From positions 659,710 to 723,709 of the forward strand of contig JAKAGM010000001.1 of the NCBI GenBank assembly GCA_021815445.1: 64,000 nucleotides of DNA. The letters run 5' to 3'. The position numbers and the translations under genes are program-made. The stretch's first letter is position 1, and the number at the start of each line of letters is the position of its first letter. A model generated the notes under the pieces. That model had not been told where the DNA came from. It ran no database searches and worked only from the letters and a program-made list of their open reading frames with translations. Positions 1 through 23,199 of this stretch are shown one piece after another. The DNA comes from a bacterium. GTDB lineage: Bacteria; Patescibacteriota; Patescibacteriia; UBA10025.

Positions 1-330
1 CTGGCGGTATTCCGCTGTCTGCATCTTGAGCAATTCGTTGGTCTGCTGTTTTTCTATTGTTTTGAGCCGCTCGATATATTCATCGATGTTGAGGCTGCGG
101 GACTGCACGACAATCTGCAGGACAAAATCGAGCGAGTTGAGAAATTGGACGTACGCCGAGATGACGGCATTTTGCTCATCCTCCGACTTGAGGGCGAAAT
201 TGATCGACGACGCGAGAAGCACGCTCCTGAGCGTTCCGTCTTTCATCACGACGATGCCGTCACGGATTTCGAGGACGTCAAGAAATAATTGCGTTGGCGG
301 GACCCTCTTTTTTATTACGCGTTCTGCCAT
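1..330 (-). CDS. VirB4/TraC-like type IV secretion ATPase, N-terminal part (gene continues past window start)
   Basis: Minus-strand ATG at 328-330, absent from ORF track because no stop lies inside the window. Translation MAERVIKKRVPPTQLFLDVLEIRDGIVVMKDGTLRSVLLASSINFALKSEDEQNAVISAYVQFLNSLDF resembles N-termini of Gram-positive/CPR VirB4-family ATPases. Lies 4 bp downstream of the PrgI-like gene in the same operon. Confidence 0.5.
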   Translation of the reverse strand, partial: MAERVIKKRVPPTQLFLDVLEIRDGIVVMKDGTLRSVLLASSINFALKSEDEQNAVISAYVQFLNSLDFVLQIVVQSRSLNIDEYIERLKTIEKQQTNELLKMQTAEYRQ

Positions 331-333
331 AAG

Positions 334-768
334 TTATTTTATTATCTCCTCTATCCCTTCCTGATATGCACCGCCGGTATCCACAAGAAGTGAAAGCTCC
401 GTCAGGCGGCTCGCATTTACCGCTCTTTTCATGGGAAGTATTTCTTTGACCGGTTCCTTTTCCTGCGGAGCTATTCTTTCTTTCATGCCGCCCTTGTTCC
501 ATATGAGGAGCCCGGGCCGCTGGAGGGTCTGGAGAAGCGAGAGAAGGAAGTAATGGAACGGCCTGCCGTTGATTTTCGCGAAGGCAAAAAGGCCCGTAAC
601 GGCAAAAGTGACGACGGCGAGGACTGCCGCTATCCAAAATTGAAAAAGCTTGAACTCGATGAACATCACCATGAACCCGAAGAGAAACACGACAAACTGG
701 CGCACTGTGATAGGCCCGATAATTTTGTTCTCGACGTCGATAAATTGGGGGACGACAAATTGTTGCAT
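334..768 (-). CDS. PrgI-family small membrane protein (conjugation/T4SS-associated)
   Basis: 144 aa. N-terminus MQQFVVPQFIDVENKIIGPITVRQFVVFLFGF is typical of the PrgI family, followed by two hydrophobic helices. Sits immediately upstream of the VirB4-like gene. Confidence 0.65.
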   Translation of the reverse strand: MQQFVVPQFIDVENKIIGPITVRQFVVFLFGFMVMFIEFKLFQFWIAAVLAVVTFAVTGLFAFAKINGRPFHYFLLSLLQTLQRPGLLIWNKGGMKERIAPQEKEPVKEILPMKRAVNASRLTELSLLVDTGGAYQEGIEEIIK

Positions 769-775
769 AGGTCGT

Positions 776-2341
776 TTAGTAGCGCAATAATCTATTTATA
801 TCGGCTATCGCATCGAATTCTTCGTTGCTGAGGACGGGCGCTTTTTTTCCGGCGCGCGCGGCAATAACCTGTTGGACAGAAACACCCGTTTCGATGCTTT
901 CGCGTCCGATATCGAGATAGAGCTGAAAAAGCGGGGAGCGCCGCCATGCCTTGATGCCCGATGAACGCATTGCATATGATTCTTCCTCCAGGAGACTTAT
1001 TTTTTCAAGAATTTTTCTTTTGGCGTCTTCCGTCGTCGTGCCGAACCTGCGGAAATCGGTCACATCCAAGTCCGCGAGCTCCTCGACGGGGCCGAGTGTC
1101 TTATGAACCGCCGGCACTTCAACGATGTCGGAGATCCGCTGGCGAATCTGGGCATCGGGACGCCGCATCTGCGGAATCTCGGCTTCTGGGCGACTCACCT
1201 GAGGCGGGCTCGGCCTGGGAGAGGGAGCTGGCGGCGGCGTTGATTGCACCTTCAGCGGAATAGATGATTCGGGAGTCGAAACAGGTTGGAGTATAGGAAT
1301 AGTCTTGCCCGGCGAGACACGCGGAGACGGTTGCGCGGGAGGCGCTTGAACGGGCCGAGGCGATGGCATAGGCGCCGGCGAAACGTGCGGTGTCGGCTGG
1401 TAAACCTCAGTAACCGGACGGGACAGCACGACGCGGGGCTCTATCACCGGCGGCGGAGAGATCACCGGCCTGCGTTCCACCTCGGGAATACTCATGGAAG
1501 GATGCGGAGGCCTCAGCGGAATTTTTGGCGCATAGGGCCTCTGCGGAAGACGGTGTAATGCTTGTTGCATCGAGCCTTGCAGCTTCTGCAGCATTCCCTG
1601 AGACGCAAGCGTCGATGCCTCTTCCTCAATATCTACTATCAACCGGCGCGCTAAGTCGCTTTCGAAACCCATCCCGCCGATTTTCTGCGACCGCTGGAGG
1701 GCTTCCTCAGTTTCCATTGAATTGCGCATCTCCGAAAGCCGCGATTTTACTATGTTAAAAAAACGTTTTTCCATCACATCATCGGGAAAATCAACCGCAT
1801 TCCTGACTATGATATTTTGGATCACCGCGTCGAGGTCCGCTTCCGGAGTTTTTACAGCGAGATTGGCGAGCTTTTGGCGATGGAGGAGGATGTCCTGTTC
1901 GTCTTCCGGTTCGACGAAGTATGCCGATTTTGTACCTGACGAGACAGGAGTATGCGGTTCGAGAACAGACCGCTCTGCCAAAGCGCTTCGCGAGGGCGAG
2001 AGTTCAGCATGGTCTGAAGGTTTTAGGGTCTTTATTTCCCCTTGGAGTGTTTGGGGAATCAGACGTACGACCGGCGCTTTCGGCAGCGGTGTTGGAATCC
2101 CCTGATCGGTAGGCTGAGGAGCGACTTGCGGCATGGCCTGCGGGGCACCGGGGATCGGAGAGGCGACTGTTTCGGGAACAAAGGGCTTCTCCCCCACATC
2201 GAGGCTCGATGACGTTTGTCGCAGAGTGCTAAAATCCACCAGCTGTCCCTGCCGGACTATCTTGAGGCGGCCTTCTTTTGTCCTGATAATAAACCCCTCG
2301 GGAAGTCGGCTCGCGTCAAATTGTAGGTTGTCATCAGCCAT
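776..2341 (-). CDS. hypothetical protein with long proline-rich linker
   Basis: 521-aa uninterrupted ORF in the same operon. N-terminal globular part, ~250-aa Pro-rich low-complexity region, C-terminal alpha-helical domain. No recognisable catalytic motif. Confidence 0.6.
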   Translation of the reverse strand: MADDNLQFDASRLPEGFIIRTKEGRLKIVRQGQLVDFSTLRQTSSSLDVGEKPFVPETVASPIPGAPQAMPQVAPQPTDQGIPTPLPKAPVVRLIPQTLQGEIKTLKPSDHAELSPSRSALAERSVLEPHTPVSSGTKSAYFVEPEDEQDILLHRQKLANLAVKTPEADLDAVIQNIIVRNAVDFPDDVMEKRFFNIVKSRLSEMRNSMETEEALQRSQKIGGMGFESDLARRLIVDIEEEASTLASQGMLQKLQGSMQQALHRLPQRPYAPKIPLRPPHPSMSIPEVERRPVISPPPVIEPRVVLSRPVTEVYQPTPHVSPAPMPSPRPVQAPPAQPSPRVSPGKTIPILQPVSTPESSIPLKVQSTPPPAPSPRPSPPQVSRPEAEIPQMRRPDAQIRQRISDIVEVPAVHKTLGPVEELADLDVTDFRRFGTTTEDAKRKILEKISLLEEESYAMRSSGIKAWRRSPLFQLYLDIGRESIETGVSVQQVIAARAGKKAPVLSNEEFDAIADINRLLRY

Positions 2342-2581
2342 TGTGACGATGGGTGCGTATTATCCAGCCGTTTTCCAAAAAATATATTCGAGAGCTTCTC
2401 CAAAAAGTGGATTTATTATAGCACATATTCATGAAAAAATCAAAGACACCGCACTTTGGTGTCTGCCCACCCTGAACTTGATTCCCCGACCTCGCTCCGC
2501 GAAGCGGGGCGGGCAGGGTCCCGTGGTAATATAAACGATATGCTGAATCAAGTTCAGCATGGTATGAAGTAACGATCTTTA

Positions 2582-3910
2582 CTACACCTTATTCACCAGC
2601 TTGCCATTCTCGACGGCATGCGGCGCCCAGAGAAATGTTCCCTCGGCCTCATCAGCGTATGCCATCAGCTTGTACTCTCCGCCCATGATGTCGCCCAGTT
2701 CCATGCCGACTATCGCCGCCTCGTCCGCTGCCATATTCAGGCGGTCCTGCAAAAGGTATTGCAAGAATTCGCTGATGATTATCGGGTCCGTCGGGCGCGC
2801 ATCGATAAACTCCCGTACGCGGGCTTCGGGGTACTTCTTTTCCGCATATCCTGCCACCGTCTGTCGCCAGCTTTCGCTCTGTTTCAGGGCGTCCTGCAGA
2901 CGACCGATCCGGGCAAGTAGCAGAATGCATGCGACGAGATGAGCGCGATCTCTTTTGCGGAGCGCCTCGACAAGTTCTTTTTTGATCTTCACGGGGTCAT
3001 CCCCGAGACTTTGTCTCAGCTTCTGTTCCTCGGCAAACGGGCTAGCCATGCGTTCTTTAGCGAAAGTGAGTAGCTCAGCGAGTGTGCGGCGCGTGCGCAC
3101 GGAGTTTTTTGGTCGTGACGGCAAGCGCGCATCCTGTTTAGAAACTGGCGGCTTCGGAAAGACCTCGGAGCGTTGGGATAATATTCCTGATGCCTGCAGT
3201 CCCGTAGTAACAGGTGACACTACCATCTCTCGGGCAAATTCTTCAACGGGCGGATAACGGACGAAGTTATATACCTGGAGAATCTTGAGGACCTTTTCCC
3301 TGTCTTCTTTTGAGAATTGCCTGATGTTGGCGCTATGGCTGAGGTAATACATTTCTTCAAGGTTGCCGCGCTGTTCATCCGGCCTCGAAAGTCTGTTGTA
3401 ATCCGCTATTACACTGCTTACCGTCGAGGATACTGATCTACCCTGCTCAACTTGCATCGTATACTTTCCAATTTTTTCCATATTTCTTCCCATGGCTCTC
3501 AGGAGAATTCCCCTTTTTTCCCCGCGTAAAAAAGGATCCCACCATCCTTTGAAAAGAATCCTAAGTTTTTCGCGAACATCAATGTCGAGATTAAAAAGCG
3601 CCAGCAAATTTGAGCTGAATATTGTTTCAAGGTCTTGATTTTCGATAAAGGGGAGGGCAATTCCTTTGAGCCAGAGGATTAGTTTGCGGTATCGGCTGAA
3701 GAGGTCAGTATATCGTTGCTCCAGGGGGAGATTTTTATCAAGAAAATTTTGCAGAAAAGCGCTAAGCTTTACCGCGTCGGAATACAGGGATGCCCGTTCA
3801 ATATCGAGAACTTTTTGCCCGATACGCCCGTAAGATTCACTATCCAAGAGGTCATGGGGCGTGAGCTTGATGACCTGGTCGATATCCATGTCGCTGATGT
3901 TTTTGCCCAT
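2582..3910 (-). CDS. hypothetical protein (T4SS-like operon member)
   Basis: 442-aa ORF tightly packed between the VirB6-like gene (4-bp gap) and the Pro-rich gene. No recognisable motif. Confidence 0.55.
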   Translation of the reverse strand: MGKNISDMDIDQVIKLTPHDLLDSESYGRIGQKVLDIERASLYSDAVKLSAFLQNFLDKNLPLEQRYTDLFSRYRKLILWLKGIALPFIENQDLETIFSSNLLALFNLDIDVREKLRILFKGWWDPFLRGEKRGILLRAMGRNMEKIGKYTMQVEQGRSVSSTVSSVIADYNRLSRPDEQRGNLEEMYYLSHSANIRQFSKEDREKVLKILQVYNFVRYPPVEEFAREMVVSPVTTGLQASGILSQRSEVFPKPPVSKQDARLPSRPKNSVRTRRTLAELLTFAKERMASPFAEEQKLRQSLGDDPVKIKKELVEALRKRDRAHLVACILLLARIGRLQDALKQSESWRQTVAGYAEKKYPEARVREFIDARPTDPIIISEFLQYLLQDRLNMAADEAAIVGMELGDIMGGEYKLMAYADEAEGTFLWAPHAVENGKLVNKV

Positions 3911-3913
3911 AGA

Positions 3914-6900
3914 TTATGTTTCTCCTTTCGTAGAGCCTCTAGTGAGCTGATCTTTCATCACCTTGTTCAGCCGGTCCAGTTGCAAGAGCAATTCACGCTG
4001 CTGGACTTGATTGCCTGAGAAACCCGTTGACGCTCCCGTCGCTGCATTTGAACGCATTTCTCCCAGAGTCTCATTGAGACCTTGTGTCCTCTTTTTATCT
4101 ATGTCGCCCATCCCTTTTGACGCTTTGTCAAGAGTGCCGATGAGCCCTCCCAAGCTCTTTTCCATTTCCCCTGCCAGCTTGGAAAAATCATCGATAGTGC
4201 CAGTGGATGTCTCGAGCGCCTCGCGCACTTTCTCTGATAAGGCATTAATATCCAGGAATGCTCCTCCCTGACTAATGCCGCTAATGGACTCCCGGCTTGG
4301 CATATTCTGTTGAAATTGGGCCGAGCTGAGCTGCGAATCGAGCCGATCAATTTCTTTCTGGATAGGCGCCCTATCTTCGTCCAACGGAGTCCTTCCGAGC
4401 TCCTCGACAAGATGCCGACGTCGCTCATTAACTGCCCTCCAGAGATCCCCTAGCGCCTCCTCGGATGCTTTTTCTGCCGTCTGACGATCCTCCGGCGCTC
4501 TCTCCGCTTCGCGGGCATCCATCTGAGCGGCATGTTCTTTTTGCAGATTACGTATCTGGCTTGTTTCAAAGGTTTTTCGCTGTCTCTCCACATCGGGCGG
4601 AACCGACGTCGGAGTCATAGAGGCTGCGGAGGGTCCCAATTGCATGAGTTTATCTGCCAGTTCTCTTTGCTGATCTTTCCCAAGCTTCTCACCCTCAGCA
4701 TTCGTAAGACTAGCGATAGTTCCGTCCAAAACCTTCCGCATATCTTCCCGAGCTTCATTGGTGAGTATGCCGGAGATTTCATTTGCCACGCCCTCAGTAT
4801 CCTCGCTCCAATACCCGCGTATCTTATCACGCTCTTCCGTAAGTTTTTTCAGCTTGCCTTCACGCTCGCTCTTTTCCTGTGGGGAAAGATCATTCCCCGA
4901 AAGCTCGTCCTTCAACTGCTCGATCTCTTGATCAACTTCTTCCCCGCGAGCCTCGGTACCCGGCTTGTATCTTTCCCCGTCCCATTTGAGCTCTTTGTCT
5001 CTTTGCATTTCTTGAGCCCGGGCAATAACCAGCTCACGGGGAATCATTTTCTGCCCGAAACGTGTGGCAAGCTCTGTGGATGCTAAATCATCCCGCAGTT
5101 TAATTGGTGCCCGGGTATCTGTAATGCCATATTGCTTGAGCGTATTATCAACGTCACTGAAATGTATCTCCTGGTCGAGTATCCTCCTGTGCTCGTCAAT
5201 CTCGCTCGGTTTGACCTTCTCCTTATATCCCTCTTCCCAGGGGTATGCATTGCCGCGATCCTTTTCGGGGCTTGCGTCTGGTTTTTTGAGAAACTTTTGA
5301 CTCCAAAATGCCTTTGTCGATGTAGGATTGCTTTCATATAATTTCATCAGATCGGCCTTCAGATCTTCCACGGCAGTTTTTCCATCCCGAGCATGAAATC
5401 CTCGCTTTTCCGCTTCTTCATCTGTGCTAACAATATTGCCATTTTCATCGAAATACTTCCCAACCATTTGATCCGAATACCTCGACTGCATCTGTCTCAT
5501 CTCGGCGACGTGCTGACCGCCGAGCAACTTCCGGTACATGGTGTTTTCAAAGGTACCTTCTTCTGGGGCATAATTATCCGCTGAGTAATCCCATTTGCCG
5601 GTCAGATTGCCATTTTCATCCCGCTGCTCCTGCCATACGCGCTGACGAGTCACATGGGGAGATAATTTGTTAAGAAACGCGCGCATAGGCTGTTTTTTCG
5701 CTTCGCCGAGGATTTCATTCACGCGTTCTTCATCATCCATAATATAGTATGCGCCCGTCTCAGCGTCTTTGGCAGTATCATACTGCTCCCAGTGACCCAC
5801 ATCTTTTGCGGCTTCTGACATGCTCGCCATAGCGCGCAGTTTATGCTGGTCCTCCGCGCTGGCTGCGATTGCATTCTCTTTTTTGAGAAACTTCTTATCG
5901 AGACCTAAAAAGGACATTTTGAAATCTCTTACATTATTTGCACTGTATTTTTCAAACATTTCTTCAGGATTAAACCCGAGCGTTTCAAACTTTTCATCCA
6001 CGTCCGTCTTGAAGTTTTTATCTTTATGGTAGAGTTCACCAAACGCGTAATAAACATCGTCAAGATTCCCCTTGCCTGTGGCGAGCTCCCCAAATGCCTG
6101 CTTGGAAATATCACCTTCATGCCCACCGGTATAGAACGCTCGCCGGGCGAGGTCCTGCATCGCCTGCCTTGATTCGCCTGCTTTACCCAAGTCTTTGTTA
6201 AATTCCGACATTTTCGTGTTGATGACCACGCGTCGTGCAGCCTCGGCACGGTCAAAAGCCGCTTTTTTCCCTTTAAAAAATTTCTCGGAAAAAAATTCGC
6301 CCTTCCCTGCGGCAAGCGTCTTTGACTCTTCAGTCAGACGTTCCCCGCGCTTGGAAAATCCTTTCCAGAAATCAGGGGTGAGGAAAGATAGGTTTTCGCT
6401 CTCGCGCAGAGTCCTGCCGATTTTTGCCGCGCCGCGTCCTAATCCGTACTTTGCGGCGGCAAATGGCGAAGCTGCAAGCTTCAGCGGCGCCGATCCTGCT
6501 TTCCTGAGCCGCGCTATGGCATTACCCGCCATACCGCCCGCGATGCCGCCGGCCTGCTGTGCCACCATCAGCGCCCCGACGAGCATCGCGATACCGATTA
6601 TGAAGCTGAGGATGTTCGGGGCTGTGGAGGCCTGTGACACGCTCGCGGCGAGTGATTTATCGCCCGCAGTGCCGCTGACTGCCTGCGTGTCGACGTCTTT
6701 GGGCAGGTTTTGGACAGTCCTGACGACCTGCGGAGTCGTGTTGACGGTGACAGTGAGCGCGAGCCAGATAAAAAACGCTATCACCGGACCTGTCACGACC
6801 TGCTTCCAAAAAGCGCTCCACCACTGGCTGGAGTATTTCTGCGCTGTGGGAAACACGGCGAGGATGTAGGCAAGCGGTGACAGCACTATCAAAATCCATA

Positions 6901-7582: not shown

Positions 7583-7635
7583 AGGAAAAGGGGGATTAGG
7601 GGAATAAAGGGGTATTATGGGTTATTCTGCTACTC

Positions 7636-10600
7636 CTAGTCTGTCACCTTAATCACTCCGTTGAAGCCATACCACCCGACACTATCGTCTGGTTTTCCGC
7701 TACTGCTCGCCTGACGGGTGCCTGGCCTTTGCCCTACAAATGTGCAAGAGCCCCCGACGCTGATACAGACATTACTGCCCGCGCCCCAGTGATCAATTAT
7801 CTCCACCCGCGGGGTGTAGTCACCGGTCTTTGTCACCGTATAGAAAAACGTATTCGGATTCTTCGGGTCGCTCCGCGGAGCAAATCCCCACGCCATGCTC
7901 CCCTGATTATCCGACGGGACAGAACCGTCTTTTCCGTCCCAATCAATCAATATAGTATCAAGCGGCATCTGTTCTTTGTCCACATTTTCCGTGAAACTCA
8001 TTTTGATGGTAGAGCCGATCGTCACGCCGGGTATCGTCCAGCCGCCTGCCGGAGCGCTGGCGTTGCTGTAATCCTTGCCGTTGACAGTAAGGATAAAGTT
8101 GGTCACCGCAGGCTGGACAGCGCAGTAATCGCTGGGTGGGGCGGGCCGTTGGTTATTGGGGCAGATCGACATATTATCAAATTGCGTCTGCCAGCTCGTC
8201 ACATCTGTCGTAAAGTCATCCCTTACATACTGTCCTTTAGTGTTATCCCACACCCATCCCTCGTATGCTATCGCGAATAGCCGCCTGAGGGTATACTCCG
8301 CGTCATGTACCGGGTTAAGACTCTCAGTAACAGTAACCGGAGGCAGGATGCCGCTGCAGTAGCCCCCCTTGTTTTCACAGTTTCTTTGCGCTTCAAGTGT
8401 TTTGCAGTCACTGCCATTGAAATCTCCTCCCATGCATATTGCCTGTCCGCAGATGCTTTGCGTGAATACGGGACCGACAGGAGTTTTCCCGTCGCACGCG
8501 TACGGCAGGCCGGCGCGGGTCTGGCTGGAGCGCTTAGTCTTATCGGCATAGGGAACCTGCACGTAGAGAGGAGTGTTATGCTCTTTGCCGAACCAGTCTG
8601 CGGGCGTGCCGACGAGCGGCGGGATGGCGCCGAAAGGCGCGAGGTCGGCATTGTACCCGTAATTATTATTGAGTTGCGTCTGGTATCCGCTCCCATTTGA
8701 TACGCGATTGGCCCATGAGACGACCTCATCGCCGGCGACTTTCACAATCTGGTCGCACGGCTCGCGCAGCTGATAATTGATGACAATGGTAATTGCGGAA
8801 GGCCCTGATTTAGGCAGACCCGCGCGTACATCGTATCCTAGGACAAATCCATTGTCATCAAAACGAACCCGCATACCAAACCCCATCGGAGCGTGCTCCG
8901 CCGAGCATTGAGGCGTATAATTGAAATCAAATCCTTCCTCCGTGGTGCCTCCGTGCCAAATCTTTGGATTATTTTGGTAGAAACTATCAGGTTTGATATA
9001 GAATGACTCATTATTCCATTCACGAACTTTGGAATTTAATGTCACTTTTATAGCCTCTATATCAGTTCTATTTATCGCTTTTTCTGCCGCATTAGCGGGA
9101 ATGATTCTTGGGTCAGTTATCGCAGTTGATCCGGGAGTATCGCAGATAAACTTGCTGGCATTAGTGCTGTCGGTCATGCAGTTTGATGCATAGTCATCTC
9201 CACTCAGTATAAGATTAGCTCCTTGGAAAGGCACATCGGTAGGTGCAACGTTCATTATCGTATAGGAGGTTCCAGAACAGTCATTTGTCAATTTGGCATA
9301 AACGCAAGGATCACCATCATAGCAAGGAGCGACGGCGTTAATTCTCGTATTAAGTACGTACCCCGGCGTCGCCGGGAGAGTAGAAGATGGCAAAGGAATT
9401 TGTGAATTGCCCCGGGCCAACTCACAGAAGTAGAGCGGGGTGCGCTCCTGGTATCCGGCCTGCTGTTCCTGGCCGAAGATCGACGACTCGCCGCTGATGA
9501 TATCGATAGGCCACCAGTTGATGCAGATATCCGGATTTTTTGGATCTTTTTCTATGCAGTACCCTTTCCACCCGCGGTACTGTACGCCGTCAAAGTCTGT
9601 ATATTCGCAAAGCTTCGAATCGTCGCGCGGATACATGCGGCAGGTTCGCGTTAATTTATCAGGCGTTGAGAACGGGCCGGTATTTGACCCCGATTGGACC
9701 CCCAGCACGGGCTTTAGGGAGACGTCATCAAGGTAAAATGTCCGTTCTGATCCGGCACACGTACTACCGACTGGCGGTCTGGCAAGACAGAGAATGACTG
9801 AGGGGCCGTTGTTCACGGGGCTGCTATCCGTGGAACACAAGTTAATATTCGTCGGATCTGCGGTGCAGTGGCTCGGCCCTTGGATAATCTTCAAGAGCGT
9901 TTTGACTGTGCCTACGGGAATATTGGTTGTCACATTGCCTACGACGTATTCTTGCCAGGAGGTGCTCCCGGTCAACCAGCCGAAGGAGTCAATGCCGATT
10001 CGATTGCCGGTGACATCCAAATACTCAAATTCTACCTGGATCACGTCCCTCTGCGTGGCATTGCCTTGTTCATACTCCTGCTTCATTGAGATGCTGTATT
10101 CCGCCTTGTTCTGAATTTTATTCCCGAGATTATAGCTGACGCCATCCCACATCCCACTGCCCGGGTGGACGGCGAGGACATTATTTTCATTCAGCAGGGG
10201 GTTGCCGGGGATTGAACCGTCGTCAGAGCGTTCAGTGAGGGCTACTTTGGTATCGGCGCCGATTGCAGTCCATCCGCGGTACGTTTCTCCGCCTTTCCAC
10301 TGCGTCGTGGAATCATTGGGCTTAATCTCCTGGGACATCATATAATTGCTGTCCCAAAAGTCGCCGTCTTTGATAAGATCTTTTGTTGTCGAGCCGAATG
10401 TGCCAAGCTCGTGCATGACAGCGTACGGATAATCGCCCCCGATAAGACGGTCTATGCCGCACTTCCCGCCGCCGCACTCGCCATCGTTCGAGCACTGCTT
10501 GCTCAGATCATTCGTGCAAACGTTCAGGAATCCCCAATTAACGCCCGCCTTTGCCAGGCCGGAGATATTTTGCATCTTGCTGATATTATTTGTCTGGTCG

Positions 10601-13600
10601 CTCGAGCTGGTAAAGACCAGGTCGGCACTCGATGAGGGGATACACGGCTGGCCGGAACAGTCGGAGGGACCGTTTGGACAGCGTTTCTTCAGATCGTTGG
10701 AGCATACGTTTACAGGCGTCAGCGATGCAATCAGCGTGCAGATGCCGTTGATGCAGTCTGAATCTTTCACGCAGGTTGCGCCGGTGTCTGAACACGCCTT
10801 GAGCCCTACGCATGCGCCCGTAATAGGATCGAGTTTGTTGCACGGCTGCCGTTCGAAGCACACTTGTTCCTGGCTTCCTGACGCGGCCTTCACCGTGGTC
10901 CCGGTCTTGCATTCCAGCCAGGTATTACATACCCTGTCGCGCTGGACTTTGACAAGCTGGTTAGAGTCGCAATCGGGGGCCGCCGGAGTCAGGGGATTGT
11001 TGTCGCAAGCTCCTGACGGGACACTCCCGTCATTTGTGCCCTTGGCATAGAATGTCGCCGGCGGAGAGTTTGTGTCGTAAAAAAGTCTGCATCCCTCTTG
11101 CTGGTTGACCACGCCGTTGCACGATTTCGTGTCTGTTGACTGGGCAAGATTGTAGTGCGCCGCACACGATGCTACGGGAACGCAGCTGCCGCCCGCGCAT
11201 TGGGGGTTGGCATTGCTCAGAACGCAGGGATGCCCGACACCGCATATGCCCTCGGGGTTAAGGATGTCGCATTCTTGCGCGTTGTGAGCCCCTCCGTTGC
11301 AGAACGCCGTCGTGTCGCAGAATGCTCCCGGCGAACCGGATGTTGCGCTGCACCGTCCGGCATTCGACTGGCCCGCCGGGATATTAACATCGCATCCTTT
11401 GGGATCGAGAGGATCGCGGTATTCTGTGCATCCGTTCTGCTCGGCGGGGCACGTCCCCACCATTCCGGGCCCCACAGATGAGACCGTGTTTTGCGGGCCG
11501 CAGCCTATGGTCGTGCCGGTAACAAACCAACCAGCCGTTTTGGTGCCCGACGGCGCCACATACTGGCATGTCCTGCCTCCGGGGTCCTTGAAATAGCTCA
11601 ACCCCGTATCGGTCTTGAATTCCTGACATCCGCTCTCTTCCTGGTGGCACAGCGAGGTCGCATATTGGTCGGGATCATTGATCAGATACGTTGTCTGGTA
11701 TCCGCTTACGACATTATCAGCGTTGATTGTCGGCTTGCCCATTTTGGTACAGCCCGCTTGCGCTGCCTGGCATTGCACCGCCGGGTCATTGACCACGGCA
11801 ACGAGCGTATCGCCGGGAATACTGATCGACTGCGGGAAAGGAACCGGCGTGAATGTATGAGATACTACATCATCATGAAGCAGCGTTACATCATTTCCGT
11901 CCACCGTTCCGTCGCCATTCATGTCCATAATAGCCCACGGGTCAGGCCTGTTGATGCCGGGATGGCATGTCTGTCCCGTGCCGCAGACCGCCGTGGGATC
12001 ATCAGGATTGCACGAAGTGGCCGTGTTTGCCAACGGCCCCGTCGTACACCTCCCGTCATAGTAGCTCTCAATGAGCTTAAGGTCTGTCTGGTCGACCACA
12101 AGATCGTTGTTATAGTCTCCGCGCGGCCGTTTCGTGACCTGGACGCTTTGGTCGAAAGGATAATCACCGTTATTCGTCTGGATCATCGCCTCACAGCCGA
12201 CAGCGTCGGATTTGCAGATCTTGGAGAATGATTTGAGATAGGAAACCTGGCCTTCGCGATCACGGTAGGCGCTGCAGTTCTCATATCCGGAACACTGCGT
12301 CGTCGTGCCCTGGACGCGGAAAATATCATCAGTGACTTCCTGCAGCTGGATGTTATCGAGGAAAAACGAATTGTTGCCGCCGATGAAGAGTATACTGCCC
12401 GCGGGGATGTCCTGGTTGACAAAGAGCGGCCCGAGAGAATACTGGTTCCAGTTTCCTTGGCGCGCTATGGCCGTCCCTGAGAATTTCGAGTTAGGAATCA
12501 TGACTCCTGTGCCGTCATACAGCGCGCTCTCAATGCTTGTGTCATTTGCGCCTCCGGCGGCCCAGAAGGTCAGGATGTACGAGTGGTCGCGTTGGATAAG
12601 GGTATCAATGACTGTCGAAGCGCCTGTCGGCAAAGGGAAGACTACCATCGAGTGGCCGCCTGCCTGGGCGGCATTCGTGCTTGGGTTGAGGGCCGGATCC
12701 GCATTGGATGACCATGGCGCGATAGTCCCTCCCTCAAAATCAGATGAAATAATCGTACGGACATTATTCCCCGCCGAGCCCTTGTATTCCCGACAGCCTG
12801 CGAATGCTGCGGAGCATGTCAGGCCTTCCCCGGGTACCATATGGTACGTTACGTTATTACCTGCCGCCGTATCTATAGAATTCTTAAACGGATGGCAGTC
12901 ATCGGAGACAAAGATGAGTTTCGAGCGAAGACGGTAGGTTACCAGCCCCGAAGCATCGTAAAATTCCGTGCAATCAGGGTTCTTTTGGAGATCGTTAACG
13001 GTGCAAACCGCCGCAAGATGATTTTCAACGATACCGTCGCCGTTCTCATCGAACGGGACGCCGTCGACGCAGTTGGGATACCTGTTGGTCGATGAAGGGG
13101 TATCGGGTCCGAGATTCGTACATGGGGCGTAGTTCCCTCCCGCTTCCGCTGTCTCGCTTCTTAGCAGTCTGAACTCTTTGAGCTGGTATCCTGACTCCTC
13201 GTTCCCCACCCATGAATAGTAGCTTTGCGCGTTTGATCCCGCGTCAGCGGGCTTCACGCACTGCCTGATGAAGCTGTAGTACTCCAGTCCCTCGCCGCCC
13301 CGTGCGACTTGGTCAAGATTCGTGTATTCCTCGCAGCCCACCTGGGTCGCCGGGCAGGACTTGCCGGTTGTAGAAACAAATGATACCGGCTCCTTTGCCG
13401 GACGTATCGGGGTATGGTCTATCGGCATCTCGCGGTACGCCTTGCATCCCACAAATGCCGCCGGGCACTGGTCGCATGAGCCCGGATCATTAGGATCGCA
13501 TGATGCTGAGTCGGTAATCTTGCCCGTCACCGGGATGCTCCCGTCAAGCGGAGTGTATAAATTACAGCCGACATCATCCATCGAACAGCTCTTTCTGGCG

Positions 13601-16233
13601 CCGTTAAGATACGTCTTGTTAACCGTCGCATAATCCCCGTATGCAGAGGTCGCTCCGCCTTCCTCGAGCTGGACATCGTCAATAACAATCGTACACCCGT
13701 CGATTGCGTTAATGACGCCGTTGACTCCCGTTCCTTTGAGTCCCCGTGTAAATGTCGCCGTACGGCTGTATCGTTGCCATGCATCCTGCTTATAGGTTAC
13801 CGTCGAGGACGTTAAGCCGTTCTTATCGACAGCCCAGTCTTCATAGGGATTAAAGTTTTCAATATGATTGCCCCCGTCCGCTGACGTCCGGCCATCCGCG
13901 CATTGAGAGAGTTTTGCGTAGTAGGAGAAGGTGAAAGTTCTGCCCCCTACCGGCTGCAGCGAATCAAAAGGAGCGGGCGCATACCATGATGGACCGGGAC
14001 CGCCGATGAGTTTCATGGCGTATGAACCGCTATAGGCGTTCTTGGTCACATCGAGAGACTGGGCGGAATTGCCTATGTCATAACCGTCTAGCGCAGGTCC
14101 GCGATCATCGACCCCGTCGTCAATTTTACTGTCAGTGATAATGGATTTGTCGAAGAATTCAAAGCTCGAATTGCGGGCAAGGTTAGTCCCCAATCCCGGT
14201 TTGGTGCGGATAAACTCAGAGCATCCCGCGGCAGCGACGTCGCACGCCGGTGCATCCCTGTCGAATGCGATCCTATTTTGTTGTCCGGTTGAGCTGAGCC
14301 CGAAGTCGCACGCCCAGTTTCCTTTGCTGTCCTGTTCTTGACAGTACCACTGGCATCCGGCGTTATTTGCGTTACAGCCGTTTTTTTCCGTCGTATTCTG
14401 GAGATACGAGACCGACTGGCCTTTGGGGTTGGTAAACGTCTTGCAGCTTGCGTATTGCGCGTCGCAGGCCTGGCCTTTGAATTGCCAGACGTCCCGCTCC
14501 TCGGTGCAGTAGCCGTAGCGCTGGCACGAGCCGTCAGGGTTCTCAATGATGCAGGTCTGCTGGTCGACACAGCCCGTCTGCCGCGTTACCTGCTCTTCGC
14601 GGGGGGTAACGTCGGCTTTGTCGACTGTTCCTTGGGTTGCGAGCTGTTCATCGCCATTCTGATCCACCCAGTTTTGCGTGAGAGTTTGCTCGGTTGCCCC
14701 TTCGCGCTTGCAAAAGACTTCGGGAGCTTTGAGAGTCCAATTCGGATCGACGAGTCCGCAGAAAGGCGAATACGAAATTGTCTCGGAGCACGTGCCATCA
14801 GGCGCGCCGTCGCCATTGGTGTCAGGGCATACAAGGTCGCTCGAGCAGGTCTTTGTCTTGTCATTTGAACACACCTTTTGGCCGCAGTTGTTGAATTTGT
14901 CGGCGACTTCTTTGAGGGAGAAACTGCTCTTGGAAAAATTCTTGATATATTCCGCGGCGAGTTCCCACCCGACAGGAATGATTCTGTAGGTCCTCAAGAT
15001 GACAAGGGAACGGTACGGGTAGCCATTGATGTACTCAGGCTCCTGCCCGTCGGCGTTGTAGCCAAAAGCCTTATTGCCGTCCAGAAGTCCGGCGTCCATC
15101 GCCTCCCGCAAGGTGAGCTTCTGCTGGATCGCCTGCGCGAAGCGGTTATCAATGATGCAGTTGCTGTAGCCCGGGTTTGACGGACAGCTCGCGAGGTCGC
15201 TGACCACGTCCACAGTACCTCCGGTAAGATAATCCGGCTGGGCCAAGGTCGAAAAAATACTTTTTGCAGTTGCGATACCGCCGCCCTGGGTGTTGAAAAG
15301 CTGGGAAAAGAATCCCGCGTTTGTCCCGGGATTAAACCCTTGGCTTGATGAAAAAATTCTCTGTAGAAGCTTCGAGACTAGCGTATTTGAAAATACCCCG
15401 AAAGCGTCAGCAAGAGGGGTGCCAGTCTGCTTAGTTACCGCCTCGAAAGACTGCTGTAGCGGGAGCGTAGCGGCATACTCAATGAAACTTGCTGGCGTTT
15501 TAACCTCTCCTGTTATGGGAGACACCACTGATTTGAATCCTGTGATACCAGTAAAGAGCGCGCTGTCCCTCTGCTTTTGCTTGGCCTCCTCCTGGTTCTT
15601 AATAAGATCGTTTTTTATCTGGAGAAAACCACCAAATTCGTTCTGCTCAGGATTAAAATTGTATGAAAAGTCAATGAGTACTTGATTGGTATTTTTCTGG
15701 TAGCTTTTATCCAGGTTGTTCCCGATCTTTGTTACAGTACACTTCCCGCCGAGCTGGGTCGGCTCTCGCAACTTCTGCGCGAAAATTCCCAGCTGCACTT
15801 TGGTCTGGAGATCAATCGGTTCGCAAAGATTTTTGCCAAAATAGCTTGTCGAGAGTGTATTGAGGAAATCCCCTCCCGCGGCGTCACCGATATCCTGGAT
15901 CACCTGCAGCGGTTTCGTATAAAAGAGAGGCTTCTGCCCTGTCCCTCCCGAGGCAATGTATATCGCCGTATCGTATGCCACTCTATTAAGGAAGTTACGG
16001 AGTGCGTTCTTATACGCAAGGTCTGCAGCCGTTTTTAAAGCTTTTGTGATTGCGTTGTCTCTCTTCAGAGCAAGATTCTCAAGTATTATTACCATCGAGG
16101 GACTTACCCCAATCTGCGCTTGCGCTCGATCAGTAAATATTCCAGTCGTCACGCCGATGACACTGATGAAAATTGCAGCGATGATCAATCTCTGGAAATG
16201 CTTTTTTGTACGTCCTGAGAATCGAGAGCTCAT
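7636..16233 (-). CDS. giant (2865 aa) cysteine-rich extracellular/surface protein
   Basis: Uninterrupted 8.6-kb ORF with an N-terminal signal-anchor (IIAAIFISVIGVTTGIF). Very many Cys in EGF/knottin-like spacing. Dockerin-like Ca-binding repeats (DVNGDG, NNDLVVDQTDLKLIESYY, DMNGDGTVDGNDVTLL). At least two beta-sandwich CBM/laminin-G-like modules. Confidence 0.8.
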   Translation of the reverse strand: MSSRFSGRTKKHFQRLIIAAIFISVIGVTTGIFTDRAQAQIGVSPSMVIILENLALKRDNAITKALKTAADLAYKNALRNFLNRVAYDTAIYIASGGTGQKPLFYTKPLQVIQDIGDAAGGDFLNTLSTSYFGKNLCEPIDLQTKVQLGIFAQKLREPTQLGGKCTVTKIGNNLDKSYQKNTNQVLIDFSYNFNPEQNEFGGFLQIKNDLIKNQEEAKQKQRDSALFTGITGFKSVVSPITGEVKTPASFIEYAATLPLQQSFEAVTKQTGTPLADAFGVFSNTLVSKLLQRIFSSSQGFNPGTNAGFFSQLFNTQGGGIATAKSIFSTLAQPDYLTGGTVDVVSDLASCPSNPGYSNCIIDNRFAQAIQQKLTLREAMDAGLLDGNKAFGYNADGQEPEYINGYPYRSLVILRTYRIIPVGWELAAEYIKNFSKSSFSLKEVADKFNNCGQKVCSNDKTKTCSSDLVCPDTNGDGAPDGTCSETISYSPFCGLVDPNWTLKAPEVFCKREGATEQTLTQNWVDQNGDEQLATQGTVDKADVTPREEQVTRQTGCVDQQTCIIENPDGSCQRYGYCTEERDVWQFKGQACDAQYASCKTFTNPKGQSVSYLQNTTEKNGCNANNAGCQWYCQEQDSKGNWACDFGLSSTGQQNRIAFDRDAPACDVAAAGCSEFIRTKPGLGTNLARNSSFEFFDKSIITDSKIDDGVDDRGPALDGYDIGNSAQSLDVTKNAYSGSYAMKLIGGPGPSWYAPAPFDSLQPVGGRTFTFSYYAKLSQCADGRTSADGGNHIENFNPYEDWAVDKNGLTSSTVTYKQDAWQRYSRTATFTRGLKGTGVNGVINAIDGCTIVIDDVQLEEGGATSAYGDYATVNKTYLNGARKSCSMDDVGCNLYTPLDGSIPVTGKITDSASCDPNDPGSCDQCPAAFVGCKAYREMPIDHTPIRPAKEPVSFVSTTGKSCPATQVGCEEYTNLDQVARGGEGLEYYSFIRQCVKPADAGSNAQSYYSWVGNEESGYQLKEFRLLRSETAEAGGNYAPCTNLGPDTPSSTNRYPNCVDGVPFDENGDGIVENHLAAVCTVNDLQKNPDCTEFYDASGLVTYRLRSKLIFVSDDCHPFKNSIDTAAGNNVTYHMVPGEGLTCSAAFAGCREYKGSAGNNVRTIISSDFEGGTIAPWSSNADPALNPSTNAAQAGGHSMVVFPLPTGASTVIDTLIQRDHSYILTFWAAGGANDTSIESALYDGTGVMIPNSKFSGTAIARQGNWNQYSLGPLFVNQDIPAGSILFIGGNNSFFLDNIQLQEVTDDIFRVQGTTTQCSGYENCSAYRDREGQVSYLKSFSKICKSDAVGCEAMIQTNNGDYPFDQSVQVTKRPRGDYNNDLVVDQTDLKLIESYYDGRCTTGPLANTATSCNPDDPTAVCGTGQTCHPGINRPDPWAIMDMNGDGTVDGNDVTLLHDDVVSHTFTPVPFPQSISIPGDTLVAVVNDPAVQCQAAQAGCTKMGKPTINADNVVSGYQTTYLINDPDQYATSLCHQEESGCQEFKTDTGLSYFKDPGGRTCQYVAPSGTKTAGWFVTGTTIGCGPQNTVSSVGPGMVGTCPAEQNGCTEYRDPLDPKGCDVNIPAGQSNAGRCSATSGSPGAFCDTTAFCNGGAHNAQECDILNPEGICGVGHPCVLSNANPQCAGGSCVPVASCAAHYNLAQSTDTKSCNGVVNQQEGCRLFYDTNSPPATFYAKGTNDGSVPSGACDNNPLTPAAPDCDSNQLVKVQRDRVCNTWLECKTGTTVKAASGSQEQVCFERQPCNKLDPITGACVGLKACSDTGATCVKDSDCINGICTLIASLTPVNVCSNDLKKRCPNGPSDCSGQPCIPSSSADLVFTSSSDQTNNISKMQNISGLAKAGVNWGFLNVCTNDLSKQCSNDGECGGGKCGIDRLIGGDYPYAVMHELGTFGSTTKDLIKDGDFWDSNYMMSQEIKPNDSTTQWKGGETYRGWTAIGADTKVALTERSDDGSIPGNPLLNENNVLAVHPGSGMWDGVSYNLGNKIQNKAEYSISMKQEYEQGNATQRDVIQVEFEYLDVTGNRIGIDSFGWLTGSTSWQEYVVGNVTTNIPVGTVKTLLKIIQGPSHCTADPTNINLCSTDSSPVNNGPSVILCLARPPVGSTCAGSERTFYLDDVSLKPVLGVQSGSNTGPFSTPDKLTRTCRMYPRDDSKLCEYTDFDGVQYRGWKGYCIEKDPKNPDICINWWPIDIISGESSIFGQEQQAGYQERTPLYFCELARGNSQIPLPSSTLPATPGYVLNTRINAVAPCYDGDPCVYAKLTNDCSGTSYTIMNVAPTDVPFQGANLILSGDDYASNCMTDSTNASKFICDTPGSTAITDPRIIPANAAEKAINRTDIEAIKVTLNSKVREWNNESFYIKPDSFYQNNPKIWHGGTTEEGFDFNYTPQCSAEHAPMGFGMRVRFDDNGFVLGYDVRAGLPKSGPSAITIVINYQLREPCDQIVKVAGDEVVSWANRVSNGSGYQTQLNNNYGYNADLAPFGAIPPLVGTPADWFGKEHNTPLYVQVPYADKTKRSSQTRAGLPYACDGKTPVGPVFTQSICGQAICMGGDFNGSDCKTLEAQRNCENKGGYCSGILPPVTVTESLNPVHDAEYTLRRLFAIAYEGWVWDNTKGQYVRDDFTTDVTSWQTQFDNMSICPNNQRPAPPSDYCAVQPAVTNFILTVNGKDYSNASAPAGGWTIPGVTIGSTIKMSFTENVDKEQMPLDTILIDWDGKDGSVPSDNQGSMAWGFAPRSDPKNPNTFFYTVTKTGDYTPRVEIIDHWGAGSNVCISVGGSCTFVGQRPGTRQASSSGKPDDSVGWYGFNGVIKVTD

Positions 16234-16257
16234 GTACGTTTCATGAGATAATAATAT

Positions 16258-17136
16258 TTACTGACTTGCCTGCTGAAGCGCCTGCTGGAAGACGAGTTTC
16301 AGCGTCGCATCGTCCATGCCATTGAGCGTAGTTTGATCGACGCCCGACTGAACGAGGAAGGTTCGAATTTCACTCGGAGAAAGGTTGCTCAGACTTGCGT
16401 AAAAGTTTGCTTCAGCGGAATTGGTGCCTGCATTTGTTGAAGCGGTATTTGTGAAAGAAGTGTTTGCAAAAAGGGAGGAATTTGCCGCCAGGTTGGAAGC
16501 GGAAGTATTCGTCGCCGCATTTGCATTCGTCGTATTGCTTTCTGCGACAGTCTGGCTATACAGATTGAGAAGATCGGCGTCAGTGAGATTATCTATGACA
16601 GTTTGGGGCGCACCTGCGTCTTTTAAGGCCTTTCTCAGCGTATCGAGCGGGACAGTATCCGTCACAGCCGTCTGGTTTACGTTCCCGGAGTTTGTCTGGG
16701 CATTGCTATTGGCCGTATTCACGGGCTGACGGCAGGTCTTGCCTTCCGGACAGTTCGGATCAGTGCCCCTGGCAATTTCGTCCTTGTCAGATATCCCGTC
16801 GCTGTCCGAATCGGCGAGATACGGGCTGGTATGGTAGACATATAGCTCGTCATAATCGCTTAAACCGTCGCCATCGGTATCTTTGGTTTTTAAGCTTTCA
16901 AGCGATGCGGTGTTAGTCTCAGCTACCTGCGTGTTTGTTTGATTCGCAACTGGAGGCAGAAAAGGAGACTTTAAGCCTTGAAAGAATGCCACCACGCCAA
17001 AAGCGAGCGCGGCGACGCCTATGCCAAGTATGGAGCCAAAGATGATTTTACGGCGCTTCAGCTCTTCCGGCGTCCCGTCGGGTTGTCCTGGCAATTGATC
17101 GCCGGGACCCTCAAATTTGTTGTCATCTGACTCCAC
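16258..17136 (-). CDS. membrane-anchored protein with thrombospondin type-3-like Ca-binding repeats
   Basis: 292 aa. N-terminal TM (IIFGSILGIGVAALAFGVVAFF). Motifs DTDGDGLSDYDE and DSDSDGISDKDE. Asn/Thr-rich C-terminal tail. First gene of the long minus-strand operon. Confidence 0.7.
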   Translation of the reverse strand: MESDDNKFEGPGDQLPGQPDGTPEELKRRKIIFGSILGIGVAALAFGVVAFFQGLKSPFLPPVANQTNTQVAETNTASLESLKTKDTDGDGLSDYDELYVYHTSPYLADSDSDGISDKDEIARGTDPNCPEGKTCRQPVNTANSNAQTNSGNVNQTAVTDTVPLDTLRKALKDAGAPQTVIDNLTDADLLNLYSQTVAESNTTNANAATNTSASNLAANSSLFANTSFTNTASTNAGTNSAEANFYASLSNLSPSEIRTFLVQSGVDQTTLNGMDDATLKLVFQQALQQASQ

Positions 17137-17195
17137 AGATTTCTGCTCAAAAAGTAACGTTTTTTCTCCGAGGTTAGAGTTGTTTTGATGCCAAC

Positions 17196-17224
17196 ATTAT
17201 ATCAGAGATAGGGTCAAAAGTCAA
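17196..17224 (-). promoter_or_regulatory. near-consensus sigma70-type promoter (TTGACT-17 bp-TATAAT) for the T4SS-like operon
   Basis: Read on the minus strand: TTGACT at 17224-17219, 17-nt spacer, TATAAT at 17201-17196. About 60 bp upstream of the ATG at 17136. Confidence 0.45.
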
Positions 17225-17300
17225 ACGCGCCTACAGCCCTATTTTGGCAATAAACTGGAACTTAGGAACTCTTCCGGTATTTCGTTTTGGATACCCTGAA

Positions 17301-18146
17301 TTAACCGGTTTTCAAGCCGCTAATTTCGAGAACCAGCTCGGCCCACTGCTCAAGAGTGAGCTCCTGCGCGCGGGCAAGCCGCGGAATGCCCGCAGAACTC
17401 AGGGCGTGATGCGCATCATCGGATGAAAGGCGCAGTACAGCAGCGAGATTATTGACCAGCTTCTTTCTCCTTGCGCTAAAGCCCGCTTTAACCACGCGGA
17501 AAAAGTCTCTTTCGGCAATCTGAGGGAATTTCCACTGGGGGGCATCGAGGACAACAAGCGCTGATTCTACCGCCGGCTCAGGCCAGAAACTCGATTGAGC
17601 TATGGTGCGCACGAGGCGGGGATTCGCATAGGCCTGAGCCATAATGCTGAGAACGCTCGTATCCCCCGCGGACGCCGTCAACCGTTCGGCAACCTCTTTT
17701 TGCAAAAGGACTGTCATCTGGACCGGTTTCGGCGACAGCTCCAGGAATACACGAAGAACGTGTGAAGCGATATTGTACGGCAAGTTAGCTACAATTGCAT
17801 ACGGCTTTGAGGCGACTACTGCCGTGCTGGCGCGCAGCCACCTGAAAATGTCGTCATGGACTACATGGACATGCGGGTAAGCGGAAAATTTCCCCTGGAG
17901 AACCTGAGCGAGCTTGGCATCAAGCTCTATAGCGAATACTTCCCGGGATCCTTCTGCAAGTCTCTCGGTGAGCACGCCGAAGCCGGGGCCTATCTCAATG
18001 ACAGCGCACAAGGAAGGAAGCGCAGCAACACGCACGATATCATCTAAAACCGCCGCATCCACGAGAAAATGCTGGCCGAGCTCGCGCGCCGGCTTAATGC
18101 CGTAGATCCTGCATAGTTCCCGGGTCTTTTTTTTGAGATCGGTCAT
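17301..18146 (-). CDS. rsmA: 16S rRNA (adenine1518/1519-N6)-dimethyltransferase
   Basis: Motifs GQHFLVD, IEIGPGFGVLT and NLPYNIAS typical of KsgA/RsmA. Likely start MTDLKKK at 18146, overlapping the stop of the upstream MFS gene by 4 bp (ATGA). The ORF-track start at 18218 is probably an overextension. Confidence 0.85.
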   Translation of the reverse strand: MTDLKKKTRELCRIYGIKPARELGQHFLVDAAVLDDIVRVAALPSLCAVIEIGPGFGVLTERLAEGSREVFAIELDAKLAQVLQGKFSAYPHVHVVHDDIFRWLRASTAVVASKPYAIVANLPYNIASHVLRVFLELSPKPVQMTVLLQKEVAERLTASAGDTSVLSIMAQAYANPRLVRTIAQSSFWPEPAVESALVVLDAPQWKFPQIAERDFFRVVKAGFSARRKKLVNNLAAVLRLSSDDAHHALSSAGIPRLARAQELTLEQWAELVLEISGLKTG

Positions 18147-19321: not shown

Positions 19322-19328
19322 GAATTTC

Positions 19329-19943: not shown

Positions 19944-19981
19944 ATCGTATACATATATTCTAGCATAAAAAAGGGGGCGGC

Positions 19982-21232: not shown

Positions 21233-21286
21233 CCGTGTATCACGGTAAAATAATTAAATCCTCCTTAGAGAAATTCAATACTCGCC

Positions 21287-22501: not shown

Positions 22502-22574
22502 ATTGGCTGTCTATCTGAGTGAAGTTGATGTCTGTTCAATGTATTCCGTTCAAAAAGCGGGTAAAGGTGATCGG

Positions 22575-23105: not shown

Positions 23106-23199
23106 ATTCGATTACTTACCAGCGCAGGCACGGCGGCCCTGCGCTGCGCATGTTATCAACTCCGGGCACGCCCCCCGCTGTGGGTGCGCTCAAATGGTT

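Follow-up and report, generated by a model that had tools for sequence, protein, structure and literature searches.

The type IV secretion systems (T4SSs) of Patescibacteria comprise TrsD, PrgI, VirB6, and VirB2-like pilins, rarely include a relaxase, and often lie near ksgA or recG, with proximity to recG reported for loci of the class ABY1 (PMC12102498). TrsD is their most abundant component, and a survey of these systems states that adhesins, PrgB for example, were not detected (Quinonero-Coronel et al. 2025, PMC12102498). In Southlakia epibionticum, the T4SS is described as essential for epibiotic growth and a homologue of the type IV coupling protein (T4CP) as dispensable (Wang et al. 2023, as reported in papers that cite it). 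Tube-like structures that reach host cells have been seen, and the uptake of host RNA has been proposed (bioRxiv 10.64898/2026.06.21.733656). Here, we describe a gene cluster that fills positions 1-17225 of a 64,000-nucleotide stretch of a Patescibacteriota genome (contig JAKAGM010000001.1; hereafter, the window) and continues beyond its edge. The cluster encodes a Patescibacteria-clade T4SS, a derivative of the conjugation machinery of monoderm bacteria (mating-pair formation (MPF) type FATA, MPF-FATA). Our best overall explanation is such a cluster with a proposed mechanism of host contact and exchange, to which we assign a probability of about 0.72.

Conjugation operons of Gram-positive bacteria and a DNA import system are the other relatives against which the cluster can be read. 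The prg operon of pCF10 starts with the PrgB adhesin and later runs through PrgH/VirB6, PrgI/VirB3, PrgJ/VirB4, PrgK/VirB1, and PrgL/VirB8. The ComB system of Helicobacter pylori is a diderm system with homologues of VirB7-10.

An earlier reading made from the letters of the window alone (the sequence-only reading) reported seven consecutive minus-strand genes. These open reading frames (ORFs) are confirmed, with the edge gene truncated by the window. In order of transcription, they are:

16258-17136, minus strand: membrane-anchored TSP3 protein of 292 aa (Pfam PF18884, 41.6 bits against a cut-off of 25).
7636-16233, minus strand: giant protein of 2865 aa, predicted to be secreted, with a signal-like N-terminus, carbohydrate-binding module (CBM) folds, and 114 Cys.
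3914-7582, minus strand: extended VirB6-like protein of 1222 aa, so read from its homologues and predicted fold; the start may be the ATG at 7492.
2582-3910, minus strand: g04, a conserved hypothetical protein of 442 aa with no transmembrane (TM) segment and 1 Cys, probably cytoplasmic.
776-2341, minus strand: g05, a conserved hypothetical protein of 521 aa with no TM segment, no Cys, and a Pro-rich middle.
334-768, minus strand: PrgI/VirB3-like protein of 144 aa (PF12666, 30.3 bits against a cut-off of 27, E 6.2e-7).
1-330, minus strand, running off the window: first 110 of the 224 codons of a TrsD-like protein (NCBIfam TrsD/TraD and the N-terminal part of VirB4).

We reached the parent contig (ena:ERZ27237554:k141_1660939; 877,264 bp) by an exact-sequence match to the PrgI-like protein; the piece of it that reaches 10 kb past the window edge is designated locus L001. 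The cluster runs ~8 kb past coordinate 1 on the same strand, adds 8 more genes including the full TrsD-like ORF, and ends at a small convergent ORF and recG. Because of this continuation outside the window, the unit is a chromosomal cluster of ~25 kb and 14 genes, all on one strand, and positions 1-17225 are its promoter-proximal two thirds. Beyond the TrsD-like ORF, the genes outside the window are:

L001:11116-13050, same strand: VirB4 ATPase of 644 aa (NCBIfam NF045971, the CD1110 model, 365.6 bits against a cut-off of 325).
After VirB4, same strand: lipoprotein of 184 aa, with no Pfam or NCBIfam family.
Outside the window, same strand: membrane protein of 297 aa, with no Pfam or NCBIfam family.
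L001:14540-15526, same strand: VirB2-like pilin-domain protein of 328 aa (PF18895 at 21.6 bits, below the cut-off of 26.6).
Outside the window, same strand: TM beta-propeller protein of 416 aa, with weak beta-propeller matches only.
Outside the window, same strand: DsbA/thioredoxin protein of 214 aa (Thioredoxin_4, 1.7e-21).
L001:17440-18684, same strand: VirB1-like protein of 414 aa, a fusion of a T4SS_pilin domain (PF18895, 32.8 bits against 26.6) and an SLT lytic transglycosylase domain (3e-20).

The VirB4 of the cluster is split. The sequence-only reading had taken the edge gene for a VirB4-like ATPase; on its profile matches, this gene is a separately encoded TrsD-like N-terminal domain of VirB4 and not the ATPase; VirB4 itself is encoded by the gene that follows, beyond the window edge. 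The complete TrsD-like ORF (L001:10439-11113) ends in TAA, and the ATG of VirB4 follows 2 nt on, in a different frame. When aligned to the CD1110 VirB4 model, the 224-aa protein covers positions 11-123 and the 644-aa protein positions 150-730. The 644-aa protein also matches a VirB4 structure (PDB 4ag5, 9e-49) and P-loop_TraG (2.2e-28). For comparison with relatives, a scan of one genome per species gave 556 related loci, of which the best 80 were analysed. The best high-scoring segment of VirB4 is 59-81% identical to the VirB4s of the Patescibacteria loci, or 68-81% without the end-truncated one of L043, a range that leaves out the partial match of L045 (48%). We considered an assembly frameshift as the origin of the TrsD/VirB4 split and rejected it, because a stand-alone TrsD-like ORF of 221-246 aa precedes VirB4 in all 46 of the related loci that contain it, and the literature describes the same split.

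The remaining core components complete this picture. The PrgI-like protein, recognised as such from the sequence alone and upheld by its profile, has two TM helices (aa 16-39 and 41-68), and its position beside TrsD-VirB4 is kept in 46 loci. The two VirB2-like pilin domains share 52% identity over 145 aa, and each is preceded by a Cys-rich N-terminal extension. The sequence-only reading had described a reduced T4SS set. Its statement that no relaxase is visible holds; the set is less reduced than was thought, because the VirB1-like, VirB2-like, and DsbA genes follow a short way past the window edge.

The 1222-aa protein is best read as VirB6-like, an assignment that draws on its homologues and on a structural model. 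A polytopic membrane domain of about 7 hydrophobic segments occupies its N-terminal ~370 aa, and similarity to its database homologues (n = 419) is confined to this part; those with a taxon label are all Patescibacteria (Kerfeld-, Falkow-, and Parcubacteria). The sequence-only reading had called the protein VirB6/TrbL-like. The protein itself has no match in Pfam (E<=0.1; E<=0.01 in a repeat scan) or NCBIfam, and thus no membership of TrbL PF04610 or PF19590; support comes from TrbL in homologues and from fold matches to the VirB6 of R388. PF04610 was found in 4 of 37 scanned homologues (best E 8.4e-7), and several database homologues bear precomputed PF04610/PF19590 (TrbL/TrbL_3) annotation. 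An AlphaFold2 model of aa 31-400 (mean predicted local distance difference test score, pLDDT, of 79.5) was compared with PDB by Foldseek: the five best matches are all R388 TrwI/VirB6, at probabilities of 0.92-0.99, with weak E values (0.016-0.05) and TM-scores (0.3-0.43). Charged residues (KRDE) make up 35% of the C-terminal ~820 aa, a region free of Cys and poorly conserved, for which reason we call the protein an "extended VirB6" in the sense of a FEMS review. A profile of the full-length family returned only coiled-coil noise from PDB (SMC, dynactin), owing to the charged extension.

Gene order is conserved across the 80 loci, the outcome of a comparison that the sequence-only reading had proposed. 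On one strand, the order runs giant gene, VirB6-like gene, a gene for ~350-450 aa, g05, PrgI, TrsD, VirB4, a gene for a ~200-aa lipoprotein, and DsbA or a pilin gene, with DsbA present at some of the loci. Of the 56 loci with sufficient upstream sequence (ABY1-like lineages were sampled), 45 have a homologue of the giant gene ahead of the VirB6-like gene and on its strand, and PrgI, TrsD, and VirB4 lie downstream of the VirB6-like gene in 44 of 53. The exact arrangement KsgA-TSP3-giant-VirB6-like recurs in L002, L024, L038, L048, and L081. A reciprocal search from three distant homologues of the giant protein led in 3/3 loci (L082-L084) to the order LeuRS-(MFS)-Sua5-KsgA-TSP3-giant-VirB6-like; g04 comes next in L083 and L084, and L082 stops inside the VirB6-like gene. 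Since this neighbourhood is conserved in distant Patescibacteria, the block of TSP3, giant, and VirB6-like genes has a fixed chromosomal address. The shared order in L082-L084 also takes in a ComM/ChlI-like ATPase and an M23/LysM peptidase on the opposite strand, together with LeuRS through KsgA, TSP3, giant, and VirB6-like genes (window 17301-32871). L002, L003, L009, and about 30 other loci come from TPA_asm records of metagenome-assembled genomes titled 'uncultured Gammaproteobacteria bacterium'; the label looks like a placeholder or a mislabel.

Feature by feature, the locus fits the Patescibacteria-clade T4SS (Wang et al. 2023, Southlakia epibionticum; PMC12102498), and it is not a new kind of system. 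Shared features are the chromosomal location without a relaxase, an MPF-FATA-type VirB4 with a separate TrsD, PrgI/VirB3, a VirB6 homologue, PF18895 pilin paralogues, and flanking ksgA and recG genes, one at each side. The central claim of the sequence-only reading, a T4SS of the Candidate Phyla Radiation type accompanied by large adhesin-like proteins, is thus borne out by components, synteny, and the literature. Beyond what the survey describes, the locus includes as conserved parts a giant Cys-rich protein with multiple CBMs, a TSP3 protein, an extended VirB6-like protein, g04 and g05, and DsbA, and one of its pilin-like proteins is fused to a lytic transglycosylase. A term search of the literature, PMC12102498 among it, found no mention of the giant Cys-rich protein, the TSP3 protein, DsbA, the g04/g05 pair and its fusions, or the pilin-SLT fusion.

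The gene order is colinear with that of the Gram-positive operons. As in pCF10 prg and pGO1/pIP501 (TrsC-TrsD-TrsE), genes for surface adhesins or their candidates come first, followed by VirB6, VirB3, (TrsD), VirB4, and a hydrolase; PrgI has two TM helices, and VirB7, VirB9, VirB10, and VirB11 are absent. The locus differs from these operons in lacking a relaxase, a T4CP, and an oriT, in possessing VirB2-like pilins, in its extended VirB6, and, compared with Gram-positive conjugative elements, in its conserved chromosomal address. Its adhesin candidate departs from PrgB-type adhesins in having neither LPxTG nor a polymer-adhesin domain. The 1222-aa protein shares with the extended-VirB6 proteins of Rickettsiales and of MPF-FA systems a polytopic N-terminal domain and a large hydrophilic C-terminal extension; it differs from them in that no TrbL/VirB6 profile similarity is detectable and in an extension that is charged, Cys-free, and ~820 aa long. 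ComB offers a precedent for import through a T4SS and likewise lacks a relaxase and coupling protein. VirB7-10 homologues are absent from the locus, unlike in ComB.

The 2 proteins encoded first in the cluster are candidates for its host-facing surface. The sequence-only reading recognised the first as a TSP3-repeat membrane protein, and its profile match and single TM segment (aa 30-57) agree; bacterial TSP3 (calcium-binding) repeats and then an N/S/T-rich region follow the TM segment. In 18 related loci and in L082-L084, about a third of loci, a homologue immediately precedes the giant gene.

The second, described from the sequence alone as a Cys-rich surface protein of 2865 aa, retains that description. 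Its Sec-type N-terminus consists of a hydrophobic stretch (aa 13-35) followed by AQAQ, and the protein has a conserved N-terminal domain and at least 3 CBM-type jelly rolls. Pfam places CBM_4_9 at aa 2004-2097, an AlphaFold2 model of aa 840-1360 (pLDDT 86.9) matches the jelly-roll folds of CBM22 and CBM16, and a search with the family profile picked out CBM4 and CBM22 chains in PDB. A Dockerin_1 match (24.4 bits against a cut-off of 22.9) covers a single stretch, aa 1372-1453; it may be a simple EF-hand-like calcium-binding loop, and no cohesin partner was found among the scanned ORFs. We detected neither a catalytic domain nor a C-terminal TM segment or anchor in the giant protein, and no LPxTG-like motif in any cluster product. 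A PrgB-type polymer-adhesin domain was not found, Pfam giving only CBM_4_9 and the dockerin-like stretch. Its homologues (n = 202) are 1600-3800 aa in size, and each one with a taxon label is from Patescibacteria. Self-BLAST at E<1e-3 revealed no internal repeats; the recurring unit is a short Cys motif only, C-x6-GC-x-[EAKLW]-[YFM], present 11 times, and many of the Cys residues are kept without exception by family members. Cys content is 4.0% in the giant protein, 3.0 and 4.1% in the pilin-like proteins, and 0-0.3% in the other cluster proteins; by this measure, the products predicted to be extracytoplasmic stand apart from the cytoplasmic and TM ones. Such extracytoplasmic Cys richness fits the DsbA encoded within the cluster. 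Elsewhere in the window, a second large surface-type protein (34004-38683, minus strand; 1559 aa) has six CarboxypepD_reg-like domains and FG-GAP repeats and is unrelated in sequence to the giant protein.

Between the VirB6-like and PrgI genes lie g04 and g05, listed as hypothetical from the sequence alone, and no family was matched to either. Neither has a Pfam or NCBIfam family, and a Pfam scan of 32 members of the g05 family, together with a search of its profile against PDB, returned nothing. Homologues of g04 follow the VirB6-like gene in 13 loci and in L083 and L084. A conserved C-terminal domain of g05 (~120 aa) occurs in 47 of the 80 loci, each time directly before the PrgI gene. The 2 genes form one fused ORF in L033 (12939-14933, 665 aa) and in L075 (6706-8772, 689 aa). 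The large g05 ORFs that come right after the VirB6-like gene in L021, L038, L050, L058, and L044 may represent this fusion as well.

The cluster was predicted from the sequence to be a single operon behind a consensus promoter, with gaps of 3-24 bp. The signals are:

17196-17224, minus strand: sigma-70-type promoter-like site TTGACT-17 nt-(TG)TATAAT, 11/12 positions, with an extended -10.
2444-2464, minus strand: terminator-like hairpin with a T-run in the 240-bp gap between g04 and g05, a pattern match only.
2415-2443, minus strand: internal promoter-like site TTGATT-17-(TG)TATAAT ahead of g05, 10/12 positions, with an extended -10.

The promoter prediction was sound: the first site, upstream of the first cluster gene, is the top promoter match in 1-17500, a finding that consists of the consensus match alone. 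The gaps at the six junctions from the TSP3 gene on are 24, 53, 3, 240, 7, and 3 bp, so the predicted range covers four of them; the gap between the giant and VirB6-like genes is 53 bp (143 bp with the ATG at 7492, as called in ENA), and the one before g05 is 240 bp. The single operon fares worse. The hairpin in the long gap (7-bp stem with 4 GC pairs, tail TTGATTTTTT) is abutted directly on its 3' side by the internal promoter-like site, and transcription of the seven window genes as one simple unit is improbable. The gap before g05 has a median of 22 bp over 47 loci, and a long gap with an extended -10 match is seen only in the window and in L002 and L024, which have the same arrangement and gaps of 242 and 352 bp. 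A long imperfect hairpin also lies within the 240-bp gap (2342-2581, minus strand), upstream of the terminator-like stem; the whole gap has a minimum free energy of -73.7 kcal/mol, a value without a shuffle control. Rfam gave no match in the gap and only tRNAs across the window. An alternative genetic code was rejected because the 2865-aa and 1222-aa ORFs stay open under table 11.

The surroundings are chromosomal. The immediate neighbours are KsgA, Sua5, LeuRS, and RecG; the other 47 kb of the window encode KsgA, an MFS transporter, Sua5, Nramp, MgtE, LeuRS, an M23 peptidase, a two-component system, a ComM-like ChlI protein, LspA, GDH, IF-2, ClpP, RNase Y, YmdB, a PilT-like ATPase, and tRNAs. 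Nothing in the composition of the window stands out as an island. Among the ORFs scanned in the window and the 10-kb extension, there is no relaxase, T4CP, or integrase, an absence that spans ~47 kb on one side and reaches RecG on the other; no replication gene was found in the same range. The LeuRS (23200-26700, minus strand; 1166 aa) has two inserts between its editing domain and the remainder, a NUDIX domain (aa 390-508) and a serine-hydrolase or alpha/beta-hydrolase domain (aa 595-781); LeuRS genes with hydrolase and/or NUDIX inserts occupy the equivalent place in L082-L084. The PilT-like protein (58327-59376, minus strand; 349 aa) is a T2SSE ATPase (PF00437, 3.5e-43) and indicates type IV pilus machinery in the genome. 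A deoxyhypusine synthase homologue (57130-58200, plus strand; PF01916, 3e-95) is encoded in this bacterial genome, and a Hypoth_Ymh protein (PF09509; 55323-56177, minus strand) lies between tRNA-Lys (56193-56266) and tRNA-Arg (56922-56996).

How might these components work together? We propose a machine for host contact and exchange rather than for conjugation. VirB4 and TrsD, tethered to the membrane by PrgI, would energise a membrane platform based on the VirB6-like protein. The SLT domain would open the cell wall, and the two pilin-like paralogues would build a short tube or pilus. DsbA would oxidise the Cys-rich extracytoplasmic parts, namely the pilin extensions and the giant protein. The latter, lectin-like and a counterpart of PrgB and similar adhesins of Gram-positive conjugation, and the calcium-binding TSP3 protein would recognise host-cell glycans in a calcium-dependent manner.

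The neighbourhood bears directly on a more conventional explanation, that an integrative and conjugative element (ICE) or integrated plasmid of the Gram-positive type has its transfer region here and its relaxase and coupling protein farther off. The core genes (PrgI, TrsD, VirB4, the VirB6-like protein, and the SLT hydrolase) and their order do resemble the transfer operons of pGO1/pIP501 and pCF10, and relaxases occur in a few Patescibacteria genomes. The sequence-only reading had itself named a canonical plasmid or ICE as the finding that would overturn it; the further sequence has no relaxase or integrase, and its flanks are housekeeping genes. With no T4CP or replication gene in the remaining 47 kb or up to RecG, no compositional island, and a LeuRS-MFS-Sua5-KsgA-TSP3-giant neighbourhood that is kept in distant Patescibacteria, unlike a mobile element, we regard this explanation as very improbable.

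Several observations weigh against the proposed T4SS with its host-contact proteins, and some of them suggest another arrangement. The link of the giant and TSP3 proteins to the T4SS would be one of gene order only. The VirB6 homology of the 1222-aa protein stands on weak scores, with no profile match of its own and a Foldseek E of ~0.02. A VirB8-like protein was not identified in the cluster, the lipoprotein after VirB4 being a positional candidate only, and the absence of a relaxase and coupling protein covers the window and its extension, a part of the 877-kb contig. The TSP3-giant-VirB6-like-g04 block also occurs without a following VirB4 in 9 of 53 loci (L003, L004, L006, L011, L022, L048, L053, L077, and L078) and in L083 and L084; in L004, PEP-utilising enzymes, a HAD hydrolase, and an IS200 transposase come after it instead. 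With its own promoter-like and terminator-like signals, the block might act alone. It could thus be an independent surface-display or adhesion module of four genes (TSP3, giant, VirB6-like, and g04) that abuts the VirB4 machine, and in which the VirB6-like protein would anchor or export the giant protein and not form a T4SS channel. Stand-alone copies followed by unrelated genes, a promoter-like site ahead of the block, a hairpin and second promoter-like site that separate it from g05, and its fixed address beside KsgA all speak for such a module. We nevertheless judge it rather unlikely: the VirB6-like gene directly precedes g05-PrgI-TrsD-VirB4 in 44 of 53 loci, with the short median gap before g05 given above; g04 of the first block is fused to g05 of the second in L033 and L075; the 1222-aa protein is the sole VirB6 candidate for the VirB4 machine at the locus; and split T4SS loci are known elsewhere, for example in Rickettsia.

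A further alternative keeps the machine and changes its purpose: an effector-export system that injects proteins into a host bacterium through a pilus-like tube, with the giant protein or g04 and g05 as substrates or chaperones. Effector delivery has been speculated for Saccharibacteria (PMC11665869), effector systems without a T4CP exist (Ptl, Brucella VirB), and g04 and g05 are conserved, predicted to be cytoplasmic, and encoded between VirB6 and VirB3. This version, with its assigned substrates, seems unlikely to us, if less so than the separate module. The coupling protein is absent from the locus, searches of g04 and g05 (Pfam, NCBIfam, and the Pfam scan of g05 members) revealed no domain of a toxin or an enzyme, and from the Sec-type signal and disulfide-rich domains of the giant protein we infer that it crosses the membrane by Sec and not through VirB4.

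For the host-contact T4SS that we prefer, the direction of transport is the most tentative part. By analogy with the coupling-protein-less ComB, it may serve attachment or penetration and the uptake of host macromolecules, a direction we favour while giving it somewhat less than even odds; the export of effectors in general ranks second, as a weaker possibility. Uptake is favoured over export because the locus has no coupling protein or relaxase and because the T4SS of S. epibionticum is essential whereas its T4CP homologue is not.

The giant lectin-like and TSP3 proteins are concrete candidates for the host-binding part of the Patescibacteria T4SS, and as such modest additions to a known system. 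In the one species tested, this T4SS is reported to be essential for epibiotic growth, and candidates for host binding matter for that reason. A more specific idea, doubtful as it is, holds that the block of TSP3, giant, extended VirB6-like, and g04 genes beside ksgA is the missing host-recognition head of this essential T4SS: the giant lectin would dock on the VirB6 platform or the pilus, replacing VirB5 or PrgB, and select the host for uptake. If this were true, variation in the giant protein would set host range.

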